Shown here one piece after another: positions 21,410 to 46,577 of a stretch of 64,000 nucleotides of DNA; the stretch's first letter is position 1; each line of letters begins with the position of its first letter. Below the pieces are notes generated by a model. The model made no database searches and was not told where the DNA came from. It saw only the letters and a list, made by a program, of their open reading frames with translations. Made by a program: the position numbers and the translations under genes. Location: the sequence record MT782071.1. The stretch is one strand, 5' to 3'. The stretch comes from Escherichia phage JN02.

Positions 21410-22411
21410 TTATTTCAGTAAAGTTACTTCAGAGATTTCCTCCCAACCATCTTTATCAGTTGAAATAAAATCTGCTACATAAAGAGCCGTACGTAATGAT
21501 ACGTTGCGAAGACGAGATACGTTAGCCTTCATCCAGGACAATGCTTTATACGTTTCTGCATCTGTCAGACCACGTTTCTGCATCATGTCAGTAGATAATA
21601 TTACATCTTCAACTCGAACCATAATCTCTTCATTAGAGTGTACTCCAAGGTCGAGATACACTGAACGAGATACTAAAGCTTGAAGGTGTGGAGCAAGCTT
21701 CGAACCGCGTTCTAACTCTTTATCGATATCAACGTTTGTAATGAAAACGATAGTACCTTCAAACTCAAATTCTTTATCAATACCCTTATCATCGAGATAA
21801 GATGACGCAGTGCTCCAACAAACTTTGCGTTTATCTCCGGTATCTAATGCTGCTTTAAGAAGGTTCAAGATGTCCATATCTGAGAATACGTCAACGTCGT
21901 CGATTAAGAGAACGCTATCTGCATCACGGTTGAGCCAAAGTTGTTCGTAAAGGCCAATACCAGAGATTTTACCATTAATGCTTTTGTATTTGATGAAACC
22001 ATTATCGTTAGCATTATTAAGTGCTTTATCCAGAGAATACGTCTTACCAATACCAGCTGCACCTGAAATAATGAGTGAACGAATTTTGCCATCGATAATG
22101 CCATTCGTCATCATGTTCATTACTTTAAAGCGTTTGTTGATACGAGTTTTCATATCTTCAGTGCTTTCAACAACTGCAACTGGTGATGTCTCAACTCCTT
22201 CCATTACGATGTCTGATTTGAAGACCCATACTCCACGTTCAGAACCATCAATCATAACGAAAATTTTACCATCACCTAAGTGGGAACATTCAGGATTAAG
22301 CTTTGCCGGGAACCAGGTCTTTGTAGCAACATAAGAACCAGAGATTTCGTTATTACGATAGATACCTTTTTTGATTTGAACGTTGAACATTTTATTCTCC
22401 AATTTACTCAT
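21410..22411 (-). CDS. P-loop NTPase (Walker A/B) protein, 333 aa
   Basis: Walker A GAAGIGKTYSL and Walker B-like hhhhDD (ADSVLLIDDVD); family not assigned. Confidence 0.7.
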   Translation of the reverse strand: MSKLENKMFNVQIKKGIYRNNEISGSYVATKTWFPAKLNPECSHLGDGKIFVMIDGSERGVWVFKSDIVMEGVETSPVAVVESTEDMKTRINKRFKVMNMMTNGIIDGKIRSLIISGAAGIGKTYSLDKALNNANDNGFIKYKSINGKISGIGLYEQLWLNRDADSVLLIDDVDVFSDMDILNLLKAALDTGDKRKVCWSTASSYLDDKGIDKEFEFEGTIVFITNVDIDKELERGSKLAPHLQALVSRSVYLDLGVHSNEEIMVRVEDVILSTDMMQKRGLTDAETYKALSWMKANVSRLRNVSLRTALYVADFISTDKDGWEEISEVTLLK

Positions 22412-22478
22412 TTCGTTTCGATAGGTCTATAATAACATATCCTAAAAGCATGTACACTACTTTTTAAAAATATTTTAA

Positions 22479-22505
22479 CCCCCTAAAGGGACCCGAAGGT
22501 CCCCA
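22479..22505 (-). repeat. Conserved 3' hairpin element, copy 1 (GGGACC-cgaa-GGTCCC core)
   Basis: accccctaaagggacccgaaggtcccca immediately after the stop of the 88-aa gene; the same ~27-nt element recurs at 41737-41763. Confidence 0.6.
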
Positions 22506-22508
22506 TAT

Positions 22509-22775
22509 TTACTTATCGCACTTAGCAACATAATTAGGCATATCACAGAATACGGAGCGAGTAACTACTCGTCCCTTTGACCATGCTTCAGTTGCTTGTC
22601 CAGCCGTGCTATTAATATAGCTTGATTTAATGTTCTCAATACCCTGAGAATGTGATGCATTTACAGAACCATTAGAAGGTCCAGAAGACTGGTTACCACC
22701 AGCTCCTGCACCCGTGGTAGCACCAACAGAGAATGCCATCATTACTGCGAATAAACCAATTACTAATTTTTTCAT
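22509..22775 (-). CDS. Small secreted protein (88 aa) with N-terminal signal peptide
   Basis: MKKLVIGLFAVMMAFSVGA signal-like N-terminus, Gly/Ser/Asn-rich middle, two C-terminal Cys; late promoter directly upstream. Confidence 0.6.
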   Translation of the reverse strand: MKKLVIGLFAVMMAFSVGATTGAGAGGNQSSGPSNGSVNASHSQGIENIKSSYINSTAGQATEAWSKGRVVTRSVFCDMPNYVAKCDK

Positions 22776-22806
22776 ATTTACCTCAAGTTAAGGGTTATTT
22801 ATCTAC

Positions 22807-23796
22807 TTATTTATAGTAAGAATTATGATTTTCGAGATAGACTTGTTCAAGGAAGTCATCCCAGAAACTCATATCTACTTTTTGTTGCATACCGTTCTTG
22901 GCAGCTTGTTCTGACGCATGTTCAACTTGGTCAACGATATCTTCTAGGAATTCTTGTACAGTTTTAAACGTATGTTTACCAAGCTTAACATCAAGAATAA
23001 ATGGAGCATCCTGAAGTGGGTAAACCAGGTCGCCTGTTTTGTAAATTTCTAATAATTGAAGTCCACCACGACATGCATGACTCAATGCTTTCCAGTCAAT
23101 ACCTTCATTAGCTTCTGCCTTACGAGCACGTTCGCCATAGTTCTCTTCTAGTTTAACAAGGATGGCATTGAACTCTTTATTGGTTAACGTGTCTTGGAAT
23201 TTACGGTCCAACAGATTATAGAATGTTTGCTTACCTGTTTTCTCGTTTTCGGTTTCAACCCATGAAGCAAATTCACCTACAGGCAGAACATTCTTCATAT
23301 GTGATAAACGAATTACTGCACCATTATCAAAGTATTGTCCCCATTCATTAGAACGTTTAAGGGCTTGACGAAGAATAGCCAGTCGAGAACCCTTGACACC
23401 ATATTTAGAAGCTTGCTTACGGACATACCCTAAATAAGATTTCATGTTAGTGGTATAGAAGCGAGACCTGTTATCTTGAATATACTTCCATACATCAGGC
23501 AAATCAGATTTAACTACTAGACTTTGTGGAGTGTGAAGCATATCTAATGCGACTGTTTCACCATCTGCAGCTAGTTTAAAGAAATATTTGAGACTATACA
23601 ACTCATGGTCAACGTCGTCTTTTGTGTTCTTAGAAGACGTGTTATTCGTGTTCTTGCTCATATGTTCTTTAACGTTACCGGTCAAGATATCACGAGCATG
23701 AGGGACGTAAATTTCTTTAAAATCGACGTCCGATTCAGGAGTAGACGTTCCATAAAGGTGACTACCAAAGTAGCCTTTCATAATTGTTTTCATCAT
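22807..23796 (-). CDS. Nucleotidyltransferase-fold protein (329 aa)
   Basis: N-terminal GSHLYGTSTPESDVDF fits the Pol-beta-type NTase signature G[GS]x9-13Dh[DE]h; C-terminal helical domain; subfamily not assignable by eye. Confidence 0.6.
   Translation of the reverse strand: MMKTIMKGYFGSHLYGTSTPESDVDFKEIYVPHARDILTGNVKEHMSKNTNNTSSKNTKDDVDHELYSLKYFFKLAADGETVALDMLHTPQSLVVKSDLPDVWKYIQDNRSRFYTTNMKSYLGYVRKQASKYGVKGSRLAILRQALKRSNEWGQYFDNGAVIRLSHMKNVLPVGEFASWVETENEKTGKQTFYNLLDRKFQDTLTNKEFNAILVKLEENYGERARKAEANEGIDWKALSHACRGGLQLLEIYKTGDLVYPLQDAPFILDVKLGKHTFKTVQEFLEDIVDQVEHASEQAAKNGMQQKVDMSFWDDFLEQVYLENHNSYYK
22808..22815 (-). promoter_or_regulatory. Late promoter (TATAAATA) upstream of the 88-aa secreted-protein gene
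   Basis: Minus strand TATAAATA about 33 nt upstream of the ATG at 22775, overlapping the stop of the upstream gene. Confidence 0.5.
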
Positions 23797-25837: not shown

Positions 25838-25866
25838 ACTATAACACAACCTGAGGAGAAGTAAAC
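25838..25866 (-). promoter_or_regulatory. T4-type early promoter
   Basis: Minus strand GTTTAC, ~17 nt, TATAGT, then GAGGAGAAC SD; just downstream of the rI terminator. Confidence 0.6.
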
Positions 25867-25876
25867 TGCTAAATGC

Positions 25877-25904
25877 AAAAAAGCCCCAACCGTAAGGAAG
25901 GGGC
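25877..25904 (-). terminator. Rho-independent terminator downstream of rI
   Basis: GCCCC-ttccttacggtt-GGGGC hairpin followed on the minus strand by T6. Confidence 0.7.
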
Positions 25905-25911
25905 TAGTAAA

Positions 25912-26214
25912 TTAGATAGATGTAGGCTCTAATTTTATTTTCATGAACTCGGCAAATTGTCTGGCAGTTTTTATGCCTTGTTCATGACATTCAAATGCAT
26001 CGTCACAGGGGCTATTTTTGTAATGCTTTGCCATATACTTATAGAATTTTTCAGAATTCTCGACATTTTGAATTTCAAACAAAGTATATACGTTTTTAAT
26101 CCCTGATTCCATAAAGTTATCAAAATATGGGTCGGTGTACGCAGTACCAACGTTAGGAGTTGTTGCTGCAAAAAACCCCAGCATCGCCATGACAGCTATC
26201 GCTCTTAAGGCCAT
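25912..26214 (-). CDS. rI: Lysis-inhibition regulator RI (antiholin)
   Basis: 100 aa; signal-anchor N-terminus MALRAIAVMAMLGFFAATTP and DPYFDNFMESGIKNVYTLFE..., clearly homologous to T4 RI as recalled. Confidence 0.85.
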   Translation of the reverse strand: MALRAIAVMAMLGFFAATTPNVGTAYTDPYFDNFMESGIKNVYTLFEIQNVENSEKFYKYMAKHYKNSPCDDAFECHEQGIKTARQFAEFMKIKLEPTSI

Positions 26215-26226
26215 ATAGGCCTCCTG

Positions 26227-26439
26227 TTAATTTTGGCCAGTATTTATTTTTCGCCTTTGGACGGCCTTAACATCTGTGAGGTATTTTTCCAGCTTGCGCT
26301 TGCGTGTATAATCAGCTTTAGAACCAGTTTGACGGATATCCTCGTTTAAATGAGAAATAGAATGTCCTAATTCTCTTCGGATTTCATCCAATTGGGTTAC
26401 AGTAAGATTACGAAGTTGTCTTTCGTTTAATTGCTGCAT
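26227..26439 (-). CDS. Hypothetical protein (rI.1 position)
   Basis: 70-aa track ORF between tk and rI. Confidence 0.6.
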
Positions 26440-26466
26440 ATATACCTCTTGGTTAGATATTAGTAT

Positions 26467-27048
26467 TTATAACAACCCTGTCAAATCATTCCAATGCTTC
26501 CGGCATAATGACACGTATCTATCGGTATCACCAATTTCAATTTGACTGCCATCTGTAATTGGAAGTCCGTCTTCCGTGACTCTAGCTACCATTGTGGCCT
26601 TTTTACCACAATGACAGACACCTTTAAGTTCAACAAGCTTATCGGCAATAGCCATTAATGCTTGAGAACCTTCAAATAGATTACCTTTAAAATCTGTTCG
26701 TAGTCCATATGCCATTACCGGCACATTGTATACGTCAACAATACGACTAAGTTGATACACCTTTTCAGTAGTTAAGAACTGAGCTTCGTCAACAAATACA
26801 CAATGAATATCCTTTTGTGCCGCAGCCCATTTATAGAATTCAAAGATATCCATGTCTTTTGTAATTATATTGGCGTCCTGACGAATACCAATACGAGAGA
26901 CTATTTCACCTTTTGAATCGCGAGTATCAATAGCCGGTTTAAGAACTAATACACCCATGCCACGTTCTTTATAGTTATGTGCGGCAGTAAGTAATGAAGC
27001 AGACTTACCAGCGTTCATAGCGGCATATGTAAAAATTAAACTAGCCAT
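26467..27048 (-). CDS. tk: Thymidine kinase
   Basis: 193 aa; P-loop AAMNAGKSASLL; C-terminal zinc-binding cysteines; same length as T4 Tk. Confidence 0.93.
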   Translation of the reverse strand: MASLIFTYAAMNAGKSASLLTAAHNYKERGMGVLVLKPAIDTRDSKGEIVSRIGIRQDANIITKDMDIFEFYKWAAAQKDIHCVFVDEAQFLTTEKVYQLSRIVDVYNVPVMAYGLRTDFKGNLFEGSQALMAIADKLVELKGVCHCGKKATMVARVTEDGLPITDGSQIEIGDTDRYVSLCRKHWNDLTGLL

Positions 27049-45842: not shown

Positions 45843-46577
45843 TTACCTTAAGGTTGTTTCAATTTTAGAATAAAGCTCTTCTAAAGAGCCGTCGTTTGTA
45901 ATAACTAAATCGCCTTCTTCAATAGGCAACCCAGCTTCTGTAATATGTTTATCGGTGGATTCCGTACCAGAGCGAACCACATGAATAACTGTAGCACCCA
46001 TCGCTCTAGCGGTTTCCATTTCATGGACTTGGCGTGTATCGGTTACAACATAGTAATCGAAATCACTTCCAATATAATCCATATAATTTAATGCAAAAAG
46101 TTTAACCCAATACATACGGTCAAATAAATTAACGACAACATCCGTACCGAGGGCTTGCATAAGACGGCGGATTGACCATGTGTCGTTGATATTATTTATA
46201 GCTTCACGCAGGGCTTCATATGGTTTAATATCTAGATATGAATACCCACCTTCTAATGATGATAATACTTTAACATTATTAATTGGTAAATATTGGCTTT
46301 GTAAATAAATTAGCGCTTCTTCCATTAATTCAATAACATCCAACTTATTGATATTTAATGGTGTTTCACGGTCGTATCCAACACCTTCAAAGTATTCATA
46401 TTTCAACTCAGTGAATACATCAGGGTTTTCGGCATGTCTACGTCCCCAGGCTATTGCTAGAGCGTCTTTAATCGGATATGCCAATTGGTATTTTACGGAT
46501 TTAAAGTTTGAATTGATGTAATCAGCAGTGGTGTCTTTACCACTACGTTTGATGCCGCTTAAAAAGATTAGCTCCAT
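45843..46577 (-). CDS. 1: Deoxynucleoside monophosphate kinase gp1
   Basis: 244 aa; MELIFLSGIKRSGKDTTADYI P-loop N-terminus as in T4 gp1. Confidence 0.92.
   Translation of the reverse strand: MELIFLSGIKRSGKDTTADYINSNFKSVKYQLAYPIKDALAIAWGRRHAENPDVFTELKYEYFEGVGYDRETPLNINKLDVIELMEEALIYLQSQYLPINNVKVLSSLEGGYSYLDIKPYEALREAINNINDTWSIRRLMQALGTDVVVNLFDRMYWVKLFALNYMDYIGSDFDYYVVTDTRQVHEMETARAMGATVIHVVRSGTESTDKHITEAGLPIEEGDLVITNDGSLEELYSKIETTLR

Follow-up and report, generated by a model that had tools for sequence, protein, structure and literature searches.

How does a T4-type phage come to carry, within a run of early genes, a small gene that begins behind a late-promoter octamer and ends at a hairpin block repeated exactly behind another gene 19 kb away? 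The stretch of DNA that was analysed (64,000 nt, referred to here as the window) belongs to a Mosigvirus, i.e., an RB69-like T4-type coliphage. The small gene, ORF88, lies between homologues of the T4 genes nrdC.11 and nrdC.10, in agreement with the original prediction, which had placed an 88-aa ORF amid early genes. The nrdC.11 homologue matches phrog_388 (1e-125) and its Pfam match is RlaP. The anatomy of the locus can be read directly (Table 1). The region is probably an optional accessory-gene cassette in the nrdC.11–nrdC.10 spacer, with a 3′ joint of the promoter-early stem-loop (PeSL) type.

Table 1. Positions of the features of the ORF88 locus and of the second locus in the window.
Feature	Position	Strand	Basis or remark
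nrdC.11 homologue, upstream flank, 329 aa nucleotidyltransferase	22807..23796	minus	phrog_388, Pfam RlaP, T4 gene order
Putative T4-type (gp55) late-promoter motif TATAAATA of ORF88	22808..22815	minus	exact octamer
Shine-Dalgarno of ORF88, GAGGT	22780..22784	minus	sequence reading
ORF88, 88 aa, ATG start	22509..22775	minus	ORF reading, homologues, phrog_2243
29-nt block at the 3′ side of ORF88	22478..22506	minus	exact match to 41726-41754
T4-type early promoter for the nrdC.10 homologue, TGTACA-16-TATTAT then AGACCTATC	22429..22456	minus	motif
nrdC.10 homologue, downstream flank, 333 aa, AAA-ATPase-like	21410..22411	minus	PHROGs/Pfam matches, T4 gene order
TATAAATA of the second cassette	42420..42427	minus	exact octamer; directly after the terminator ending the rnaC-like/tRNA region
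208-aa internal-protein-like gene	41758..42384	minus	phrog_2280, N-terminal motif
Second copy of the 29-nt block	41726..41754	minus	hairpin 41735-41752
T4-type early promoter for the 101-aa gene (41342-41647), TTTACT-16-TACTAT then AGACCTATC	41676..41703	minus	motif

The ORF88 protein had been predicted to have a signal peptide, a Gly/Ser/Asn-rich composition and two C-terminal Cys residues, and direct reading together with a hydropathy scan found all three. By this heuristic approach, the predicted Sec-type signal peptide comprises residues 1–19: the n-region is MKK, the h-region is LVIGLFAVMMAFSV (mean Kyte-Doolittle value up to 2.75), and V-G-A at −3/−1 is followed by TTG. For type I Sec signals, the h-region is taken to be 10–15 residues long and the residues at positions −3 and −1 to be small; the positive n-region, hydrophobic h-region and small −3/−1 residues of ORF88 would fit this type, and a lipobox Cys is absent from the signal region. 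The middle of the protein is a Gly/Ser/Asn-rich linker, the C-terminal ~50 aa are conserved, and the Cys pair consists of Cys77 and Cys86. T-even internal proteins (IPs) are recognized by an N-terminal capsid-targeting sequence (CTS) of ~10 aa (M-K-T-Y-x-E-F-[IL]-x-E type) that ends at a prohead-protease site; the N-terminus of ORF88, MKKLVIGLFAVMMAFSVGA, is a predicted signal peptide and not such a sequence.

Conservation of ORF88 is directly observed. About 100 phage records carry the gene, the variation in length among homologues is confined to the signal-peptide region and the Gly-rich linker, and purifying selection is evident from pN/pS values of 0.08 and 0.30 in pairwise comparisons. 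In PHROGs, ORF88 belongs to phrog_2243, a family without assigned function. There was no match in Pfam, NCBIfam gave sub-threshold hits only (BLB8/JUQZ-1, E 0.016, 15.5 bits against a cut-off of 40; NprX), and PDB sequences gave nothing under E 0.39. Using a word-indexed search, 17 clusters were found, mainly from T4-like phages, two of them labelled E. coli or Shigella; HMMER, run exhaustively against 1.84 billion representatives, returned only ORF88's own cluster, i.e., no homologues outside T4-like phages. By these comparisons, ORF88 is a real conserved gene, an ORFan family of Mosigvirus and Gaprivervirus with a predicted Sec signal, and a candidate envelope-acting accessory protein present in ~100 coliphage genomes. 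The AlphaFold2 model (mean pLDDT 50.8, pTM 0.18) was unusable.

An autonomous-looking promoter–ORF–hairpin unit between two genes of an operon-like array recalls the morons of lambdoid phages. Foreign origin of this kind is ruled out by base composition: the G+C content of ORF88 is 0.41, compared with 0.375 ± 0.03 for the window (13% of equal-sized windows are as high or higher), its GC3 of 0.27 is low, like that of the neighbouring phage genes, and it differs from morons also in having its homologues within T4-like phages only.

The octamer TATAAATA had been predicted to precede the 88-aa ORF exactly, and was found 32 nt upstream of the ATG. A T4-type late promoter consists of TATAAATA at about −13 to −6 with A+T-rich sequence downstream, and needs no −35 element; in vivo, initiation there depends on gp55/gp33/gp45 (for the consensus and its tolerated variants, see PMC2988020 and PMC1524935). 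The sequence downstream of the ORF88 octamer is AGTAGATAAATAA, as expected for a putative promoter of this type. There are eight such octamers in the window, compared with 7.6 expected by chance, and seven of the eight sit 25–40 nt upstream of start codons (endonuclease VII and rI.1/rI are among the genes concerned); the spacing at ORF88 is similar to that of the other well-placed octamers. Thus, their placement is non-random, but their count is not. A parallel exists in T4 rI/rI.1 and gene 49, genes of the early region that have late promoters: there too, TATAAATA is on the early strand and shortly precedes a small gene. The octamer of rI.1/rI extends into the end of tk; a terminator, with an early promoter beyond it, closes the gene pair; and rI is an exported protein. 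In contrast, rI has no sequence similarity to ORF88, and this phage has its own rI homologue (25912-26214).

The ORF88 octamer overlaps the final codons and stop codon of nrdC.11 (TAC TAT AAA TAA), and may be a coding by-product. Indeed, the Tyr-Tyr-Lys codons of nrdC.11 encode TATAAAT even in genomes in which the site is empty, both in T4 and in Mosigvirus (TATAAATG), and the ORF88 homologue of VR25 (Gaprivervirus) is preceded by GTGCTTCA-12 nt-TATAGT, a MotA-box pattern of the middle-promoter type, without TATAAATA. Because of these two observations, the view that the late promoter is an obligate part of a travelling unit is not supported. Could ORF88 then be an ordinary early or middle accessory gene, expressed by read-through only and ended by the hairpin? 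This has a real chance of being correct, although we regard it as less than even: besides the codons at empty sites and the middle-type pattern in VR25, the chance-level number of octamers in the window favours it, as does the association of novel ORFs of T4-like phages with early promoters (Nolan et al., PMC1524935). Against it, the perfect octamer is present only where ORF88 follows (3/3 ORF88-positive sequences and 0/4 ORF88-negative Mosigviruses, all four of the latter having TATAAATG; these are weak statistics, as the sampled genomes are phylogenetically related), and the 32-nt spacing is that of an octamer preceding a start codon. Also against it, T4 uses single-base variants of the late consensus (PMC2988020), so that even TATAAATG could be active.

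No terminator separates nrdC.11 from ORF88, so that transcription of the early or middle unit upstream is likely to read through into ORF88. Late transcription from TATAAATA would probably be additional, and ORF88 is probably not exclusively late. The description of the locus as a late cassette is therefore only partly supported: the exact octamer is there, but it consists largely of nrdC.11 codons, a promoter of the middle type precedes the Gaprivervirus homologue, and early read-through is likely. A literature search returned no transcript data for any Mosigvirus.

As RNA, the block at the 3′ side of ORF88 reads AUGGGGACC-UUCG-GGUCCC-UUUAGGGGGU, and its hairpin (22487-22504) has a predicted stem of 7 bp and a C(UUCG)G tetraloop (−12.9 kcal/mol). 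An element of ~27 nt had been predicted to be common to the two loci; the exact sharing was borne out, whereas the length is 29 nt and the second copy lies ~10 nt away from its predicted position of 41737-41763. The 28-mer ACCCCCTAAAGGGACCCGAAGGTCCCCA has exactly two copies in the window (22478-22505 and 41726-41753) and gave 0 matches in 100 shuffles with 3 mismatches allowed; the overall identity is 29/29, including the unpaired flanks (AU... and ...UUUAGGGGGU), and similarity between the loci extends past the hairpin, at 44/64 positions, through the early promoter. Rfam at gathering threshold reported two tRNAs only in the window, and nothing at either hairpin.

It had been anticipated that the element might prove to be a ubiquitous terminator sequence. 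It is not ubiquitous: apart from the two exact copies in the window, there are one or two matching places per related Mosigvirus genome, among the matches listed, and exact copies of the 27-mer in IMG/VR are confined to these two loci. An intrinsic terminator needs a G+C-rich hairpin with a run of U directly behind it. The hairpin here is of that kind, but efficient intrinsic termination is doubtful, because the tail (UUUAGGGGGU/UUUAGGGGGUU) has three U only and the main minus-strand hairpin was not accepted by the terminator scan; the T4, VR25 and IME341 spacers have U6 tails. A switch to an alternative hairpin using the G5 run is unlikely, as that fold is much weaker (−5.0 compared with −12.9 kcal/mol).

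PeSLs of T4-type phages, as defined by Arbiol et al. (2010, PMC2839356) and Comeau et al. (2014, PMC4122927), combine an early promoter (sigma-70-type or T4-early-type) with a potential terminator stem-loop directly upstream of it; these composites mark indel-prone spots of T4-type genomes and mediate gene shuffling. At both loci in the window, the UUCG hairpin is followed after 30 nt (22.5-kb locus) or 31 nt (41.7-kb locus) by the −35 hexamer of a putative early promoter, then AGACCTATC, a GGAG-type Shine-Dalgarno sequence and ATG, and both promoters fit the T4/PST consensus TTTACW-N17-TAYWAT. As for PeSLs, the composites are in spacers of hyperplastic regions beside indels (four Mosigvirus architectures at one locus, replacement of the IP gene in relatives at the other), with neighbouring small ORFs present or absent between close relatives. 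Unlike the PeSL pair of PST/T4, which has a more variable AGNA-loop-TCNT stem-loop, the stem here is G+C-rich with a UUCG loop, and the 5′ side of ORF88 is the late octamer in the last codons of the upstream gene, not a second PeSL. By their arrangement, the hairpin and early promoter at both loci match a PeSL-type composite.

The boundaries of the insertion are observed in close relatives, where the nrdC.11/nrdC.10 spacer of Mosigvirus is seen with ORF88, with a second small ORF, with both and with neither. ORF88 alone is found in the window and one IMG/VR contig; in AV116 and FL31 there is instead a 72-aa ORF between duplicated early promoters; GADS24 has ORF88 and the extra ORF together; and the empty sites (ChristianSchoenbein and LF82-2, plus T4 and G4498) read TATAAATG-AT(A)A-hairpin-early promoter. 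The ORF88 indel starts at the final base of TATAAAT(A/G) and reaches as far as the hairpin. The extra ORF of GADS24, AV116 and FL31 is bounded by direct repeats of GTTATTATAGACCTATC, consistent with recombination between PeSL copies that would give deletions or mini-circles. Other inserts occupy this spacer in Tequatrovirus, Dhakavirus and Gaprivervirus. ORF88 was sought at other genomic slots and was found only downstream of nrdC.11; its movement between loci is thus something we infer and have not seen.

At the second locus, TATAAATA lies 36 nt upstream of the ATG of the 208-aa gene, whose N-terminus, MYTFNEFLAE/TEVITE, agrees with the IP motif for capsid targeting and prohead protease. In other Mosigviruses, this locus holds different CTS-bearing genes, each with its own hairpin: homology to relatives is lost immediately past the late promoter and returns at the early promoter, and the hairpin changes whenever the IP gene changes. 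Mini-modular shuffling at T-even IP loci was described by Repoila et al. (1994), as relayed in PMC2839356 and PMC4122927. As far as those accounts go, the second locus is a classic case, with unrelated CTS-bearing genes swapped between conserved transcription and translation signals, and ORF88 differs from it in having a predicted Sec signal, no capsid-targeting leader and a place outside the IP loci. For both genes, the boundaries of the optional cassette in relatives are the late-promoter octamer on the left and the hairpin or early-promoter joint on the right, as the idea of a portable promoter–gene–hairpin module would have it. That idea stood in so far as both genes behave as optional cassettes; it did not in that the promoter is not obligate and ORF88 is found at one locus only. 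The module is not of a new kind, but matches the published PeSL joints and T-even IP-locus shuffling (PMC2839356, PMC4122927).

In the reading of the region as an optional cassette with a PeSL-type joint, a gp55-type late octamer would be created at the junction of the insert with the Tyr-Tyr-Lys-stop codons that end nrdC.11. It would be followed by the Shine-Dalgarno sequence and 88 codons for a small ORFan that is putatively Sec-exported, then by the very stable C(UUCG)G hairpin, which most likely defines or stabilizes the 3′ end of the transcript, and finally by the T4-type early promoter, which would restart transcription for nrdC.10. The same composite, with the identical block, would end the IP gene cassette. 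The identity of the blocks would then reflect common descent of the joints, by recombination or gene conversion between dispersed regulatory elements or by insertion of ORF88 via the TATAAAT and hairpin homologies; it would not reflect a functional link between ORF88 and the IP gene. As ORF88 has never been seen at another locus, this history cannot be told from that of one ancient insertion which ordinary homologous recombination within flanking genes has since spread. The locus is a clear but ordinary example, which leaves existing knowledge of T4-type phages unchanged. Its value is as a clean sequence-level case of such phages adding and swapping small genes with neighbouring transcription undisturbed: regulatory motifs lie at both ends of the insert, and two independent mini-cassettes are found in every presence/absence combination in sequenced relatives.

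Perhaps the blocks are identical for a simpler reason, namely that GGGACC-UUCG-GGUCCC is an optimal terminator, repeatedly selected, and arrived at without mobility by convergence or ancient vertical inheritance, in which case the repeat would carry no message about portable modules. The C(UUCG)G hairpins of T4 mRNAs, that of the gene 23 terminator among them, were reportedly described by Tuerk and colleagues in 1988. They share the loop and closing pair seen here (for background, see PMC4371310), and the same 21 nt that form the core of the block are found behind the major capsid gene (gene 23) of hundreds of Tequatrovirus genomes, where they are annotated as a rho-independent terminator; the T4 hairpins differ in that the tail here is UUUAGGGGGU and not a U-rich run, which makes the efficiency of termination uncertain. 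Parts of the core, 19–20 nt long, match Klebsiella and cyanophage records. By these matches, the core is a stock terminator hairpin of T4-like phages. UUCG hairpins are also strongly enriched in the window (five, compared with 0.3 in shuffles). Among eight related hairpins, including those in the orthologous spacers of T4, Dhakavirus, Gaprivervirus and one empty-site Mosigvirus, 100% of the positions pair, with double changes in six of seven pairs; since the stems covary, structure rather than sequence appears to have been selected. Nevertheless, an origin without mobility is unlikely, as the identity reaches into the unpaired flanks, the indel boundaries of relatives coincide with the hairpin, the second-locus hairpin changes along with the IP gene, and the Gaprivervirus homologue of ORF88 has a different stem.

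Still less probable is that ORF88 was transplanted from an IP-type cassette, with leader and hairpin–G5 tail coming from an IP locus, where a gene for a secreted protein would have taken the place of the IP coding sequence. In its favour, ORF88 and the 208-aa IP gene have the same 3′ block, three genera have the hairpin with its UUUNGGGGGU tail next to members of this IP family, compensatory changes included, and the ORF88 leader aligns at 20/24 positions with the leader common to the IP genes of KIT01 and APCEc01. But the leader match (p ~0.013–0.015 by shuffling, uncorrected, 11 comparisons), though suggestive, is not significant once corrected, ORF88 has no capsid-targeting sequence, and the G5 tail need not have arrived with ORF88, because the empty nrdC.11/nrdC.10 sites have it too. 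It is equally improbable that there is a "late" counterpart of the PeSL, made of self-contained units (TATAAATA and leader, then an ORF, then a UUCG hairpin and its conserved G5 tail) that shuttle cargo between IP loci and other spacers via 8–30-nt joints, ORF88 being a late periplasmic effector and the hairpin–UUUNGGGGGU tail a recombination or processing site. If this were true, ORF88 could act on the envelope (in superinfection exclusion, lysis control or counter-defence), and the hairpin–UUUNGGGGGU tail would have a specific role beyond 3′-end formation.

ORF88, an 88-codon minus-strand reading frame, lies between homologues of nrdC.11 and nrdC.10, two genes that are adjacent in T4, and every gene near it is carried by the minus strand. 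About 150 complete phage genomes match the surrounding 2.9 kb at 90-99% identity; where taxonomy was retrieved, the genus is Mosigvirus, T4-type coliphages of the RB69/JS09/O157-typing-phage group. ORF88 is a genuine gene, found in 102 phage records, with pN/pS of 0.08 and 0.30 in pairwise comparisons.

Features of the two loci and of the second optional reading frame (window positions unless another phage is named)
Feature	Position	Strand	Remarks
ORF88, 88 codons	22509-22775	-	GAGGT ribosome-binding site, ATG start
TATAAATA of ORF88	22808-22815	-	exact; 32 nt upstream of ATG
Nucleotidyltransferase, 329 aa, T4 nrdC.11 homologue	22807-23796	-	phrog_388, Pfam RlaP; ORF88 neighbour
AAA-like protein, 333 aa, T4 nrdC.10 homologue	21410-22411	-	other ORF88 neighbour
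Internal-protein-like gene, 208 aa	41758-42384		followed by second block copy
TATAAATA of 208-aa gene	42420-42427		own copy
tRNA-Arg and tRNA-Met genes	43125-43281		
Second optional ORF	L009:1840-2109 (GADS24); L017:497-715 (AV116); L018:400-618 (FL31)		

Comparison with relatives places ORF88 among optional inserts. The spacer is empty in T4 and G4498 (Tequatrovirus) and in ChristianSchoenbein and LF82-2 (Mosigvirus), where the order is TAT AAA TGA TA(A/G), a CUUCGG hairpin, an early promoter and nrdC.10. The left edge of the indel is the eighth base of the octamer, which reads TATAAATA in all three sequences with ORF88 and TATAAATG in all four Mosigviruses without it and in the Tequatrovirus spacers examined. 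The right edge falls inside the hairpin (GGGGACC...GGTCCC versus GGGCC...GGCCC, both followed by TTTAGGGGGT). In other genera the spot is occupied by different inserts (IME341, UGKSEcP1, FJ1). Some relatives have a second optional ORF, of 72-89 aa and absent from the window, inserted ahead of nrdC.10 and after ORF88 or the empty site; with direct repeats of the early promoter core GTTATTATAGACCTATC on both sides, it is a textbook mini-cassette flanked by PeSLs (promoter-early stem-loops). ORF88 stands alone in the window and one IMG/VR contig, GADS24 has both, and AV116 and FL31 have an empty left half plus a 72-aa ORF between two early-promoter copies; thus, with relatives showing both, either alone or none, the two mini-cassettes assort independently.

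The 28-mer at the 3′ end of ORF88 does, as originally predicted, recur after the internal-protein-like gene: there are exactly two copies (22478-22505 and 41726-41753, the latter about 10 nt from where it had been placed), the exact identity extends over 29 nt, and 100 shuffles gave no match with 3 mismatches allowed. Read along the transcribed strand, the block is AUGGGGACC-UUCG-GGUCCC-UUUAGGGGGU, which folds as a 7-bp hairpin with a C(UUCG)G tetraloop (-12.9 kcal/mol). Hairpins with a UUCG loop are reportedly long known as a trait of T4 mRNA, from work ascribed to Tuerk et al. in 1988. Within the window, C(UUCG)G hairpins are enriched (5 versus 0.3 in shuffles). In Tequatrovirus genomes the annotated terminator behind the major capsid gene has exactly the sequence of the 21-nt core GGGACCTTCGGGTCCCTTTAG, which belongs to the stock hairpins of the wider family. 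UUCG hairpins of T4 mRNA are treated as background in PMC4371310. Among the Mosigvirus matches listed there are one or two block-matching places per genome, and the exact 27-mer in IMG/VR is confined to the same two loci of one near-identical phage; so in this lineage the block cannot be called a ubiquitous terminator.

A set of eight hairpins was compared, comprising those of the spacer downstream of nrdC.11 (T4, empty-site Mosigvirus, Dhakavirus, Gaprivervirus) and other UUCG hairpins. All positions pair and six of the seven pairs have changed on both sides, which argues that selection maintains the structure, three of the eight having come from the hairpin scan, so that this part is ascertained. 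The tail, with only three U, does not pass the terminator rule of the scan; more than stopping transcription efficiently, the hairpin may stabilise the 3′ end or terminate in part. A G5 run follows it after 3-4 nt (minus-strand tail UUUAGGGGGU, 22478-22486 and 41726-41734) and can pair with its 3′ arm (-5.0 kcal/mol). This run is conserved after the 208-aa family (Mosigvirus, Dhakavirus, Winklervirus) and at empty Mosigvirus spacers (L020:970-1010, L021:958-1000, L003:497-520); T4, VR25 and IME341 have plain U6 tails with no G5.

Beyond the hairpin the two loci stay alike at 44 of 64 positions, over a stretch that takes in a T4-type early promoter (-35 TGTACA or TTTACT; -10 TATTAT or TACTAT; AGACCTATC after it) and the Shine-Dalgarno sequence and ATG of the next gene. 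The published PeSL is just such an arrangement, a stem-loop with an early promoter behind it in a variable region; in RB49/phi1 it has been shown to be a terminator plus promoter mediating indels and mini-circles, and it has been extended to T4/PST and KVP40/nt-1 (PMC2839356, PMC4122927). At the sequence level the 3′ joint of ORF88 is of this kind, while its 5′ boundary at the octamer resembles that of internal-protein cassettes.

The second locus, flanked by an rnaC-like/tRNA region and an e.8-like gene, is such a cassette. Its 208-aa protein has an N-terminus, MYTFNEFLAE-TEVITE, that agrees with the motif for capsid targeting and protease cleavage in T-even internal proteins. Other Mosigviruses carry here unrelated genes with a capsid-targeting sequence, of 154 aa (MKSYAEFLTE) and 146 aa (MKTYAEFLTE), each having an (A/T)ATAAATA motif and a different hairpin of its own. 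Homology to the window is lost just past the late promoter and restarts at the early promoter. This pattern is the internal-protein shuffling credited to Repoila et al. 1994, as cited in PMC2839356 and PMC4122927. Homologues of the 208-aa gene in Dhakavirus and Winklervirus retain a hairpin whose stem has changed in a compensatory way and whose tail is still UUUNGGGGGU; therefore, the hairpin-tail block is old in this family. Upstream of the 208-aa gene, the sequence at 42430-42560 (minus strand) is a match to what is annotated as rnaC in T4; it has a canonical terminator (AGCCCCTTCCGAAAGGTTGGGGCTTTTTTTT) at its end and is represented by no Rfam family.

Of the portable promoter-gene-hairpin module originally predicted, there remains an optional cassette with boundaries at octamer and hairpin, but it corresponds to mechanisms already described (PeSL and internal-protein shuffling), and the promoter need not travel with the rest. 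What is new is the example, not the kind: the combination surrounds a signal-peptide gene that encodes no internal protein and lies in the nrdC spacer.

The original prediction also held ORF88 to be a late cassette. Its octamer is exact and well placed, but is built from the Tyr-Tyr-Lys-stop codons of nrdC.11, with seven of its eight bases already at empty sites. The octamer occurs in the 64 kb in a chance number (8 observed, 7.6 expected); seven copies lie 25-40 nt upstream of a start codon, including those of the endonuclease VII and rI.1/rI homologues. The eighth (46193-46200, minus strand) falls within a long ORF (45843-46577) and is probably there by chance. No TATAAATA precedes the ORF88 homologue of VR25 (Gaprivervirus), whose upstream sequence (L007:1420-1490), GTGCTTCA-12 nt-TATAGT, is patterned like a MotA-dependent middle promoter. 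This homologue keeps a UUCG hairpin with a different stem, then the same AT-rich/-35 sequence; an extra 74-aa ORF stands between it and nrdC.11, and the annotated genes of the downstream stretch examined do not include nrdC.10. There is no terminator between nrdC.11 and ORF88, and a literature search found no Mosigvirus transcript data. Given the origin of the octamer in nrdC.11 codons, the VR25 pattern and the uninterrupted path from nrdC.11, ORF88 would be transcribed by early or middle read-through and, in Mosigvirus, probably late as well.

The signal peptide predicted for ORF88 holds on heuristic reading (MKK, a 14-residue hydrophobic core, V-G-A). Length variation among homologues is confined to this region and the Gly-rich linker; the C-terminal approximately 50 residues and both Cys are nearly invariant, VR25 keeping both with a spacing one residue shorter. 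No relatives were detected beyond T4-like coliphages, an exhaustive profile search included; Pfam, NCBIfam and PDB gave no significant match, and the structure model was unusable. One faint NCBIfam match, spanning the signal peptide and Gly-rich part, is to JUQZ_fam_ocin, the model of the 'BLB8/JUQZ-1 family' (15.5 bits, with the cut-off at 40; E 0.016), and is probably compositional. From its sequence, the best-supported statement is that ORF88 encodes a small accessory protein with predicted export; the suggested role in lysis timing or exclusion is pure conjecture, and the phage has its own rI homologue.

Elsewhere in the window, about 20 T4-type early promoters lie on the minus strand (TTTAC/TGTAC...TAYWRT, then AG(A/T)CCTATCAA), and the extended -10 motif ATAGACCTATC occurs four times on it (20954, 22430, 36398, 41677). 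On the plus strand, a stem-loop and late-promoter composite at 57854-57890 precedes a 290-aa late-region ORF (57923-58795): its hairpin, GGGAGCC-TTCG-GGCTCCC, shares its stem with the hairpin of the nrdC.11/nrdC.10 spacer in T4, and TATAAATA comes 11 nt after it. On the minus strand, the thymidine kinase gene overlaps at its end with TATAAATA (26464-26471), which stands just ahead of the homologues of rI.1 and of the lysis-inhibition gene rI (25912-26439); these are followed by a terminator hairpin and early promoter (~25865-25910); the layout of this segment is the same as that of the ORF88 cassette.
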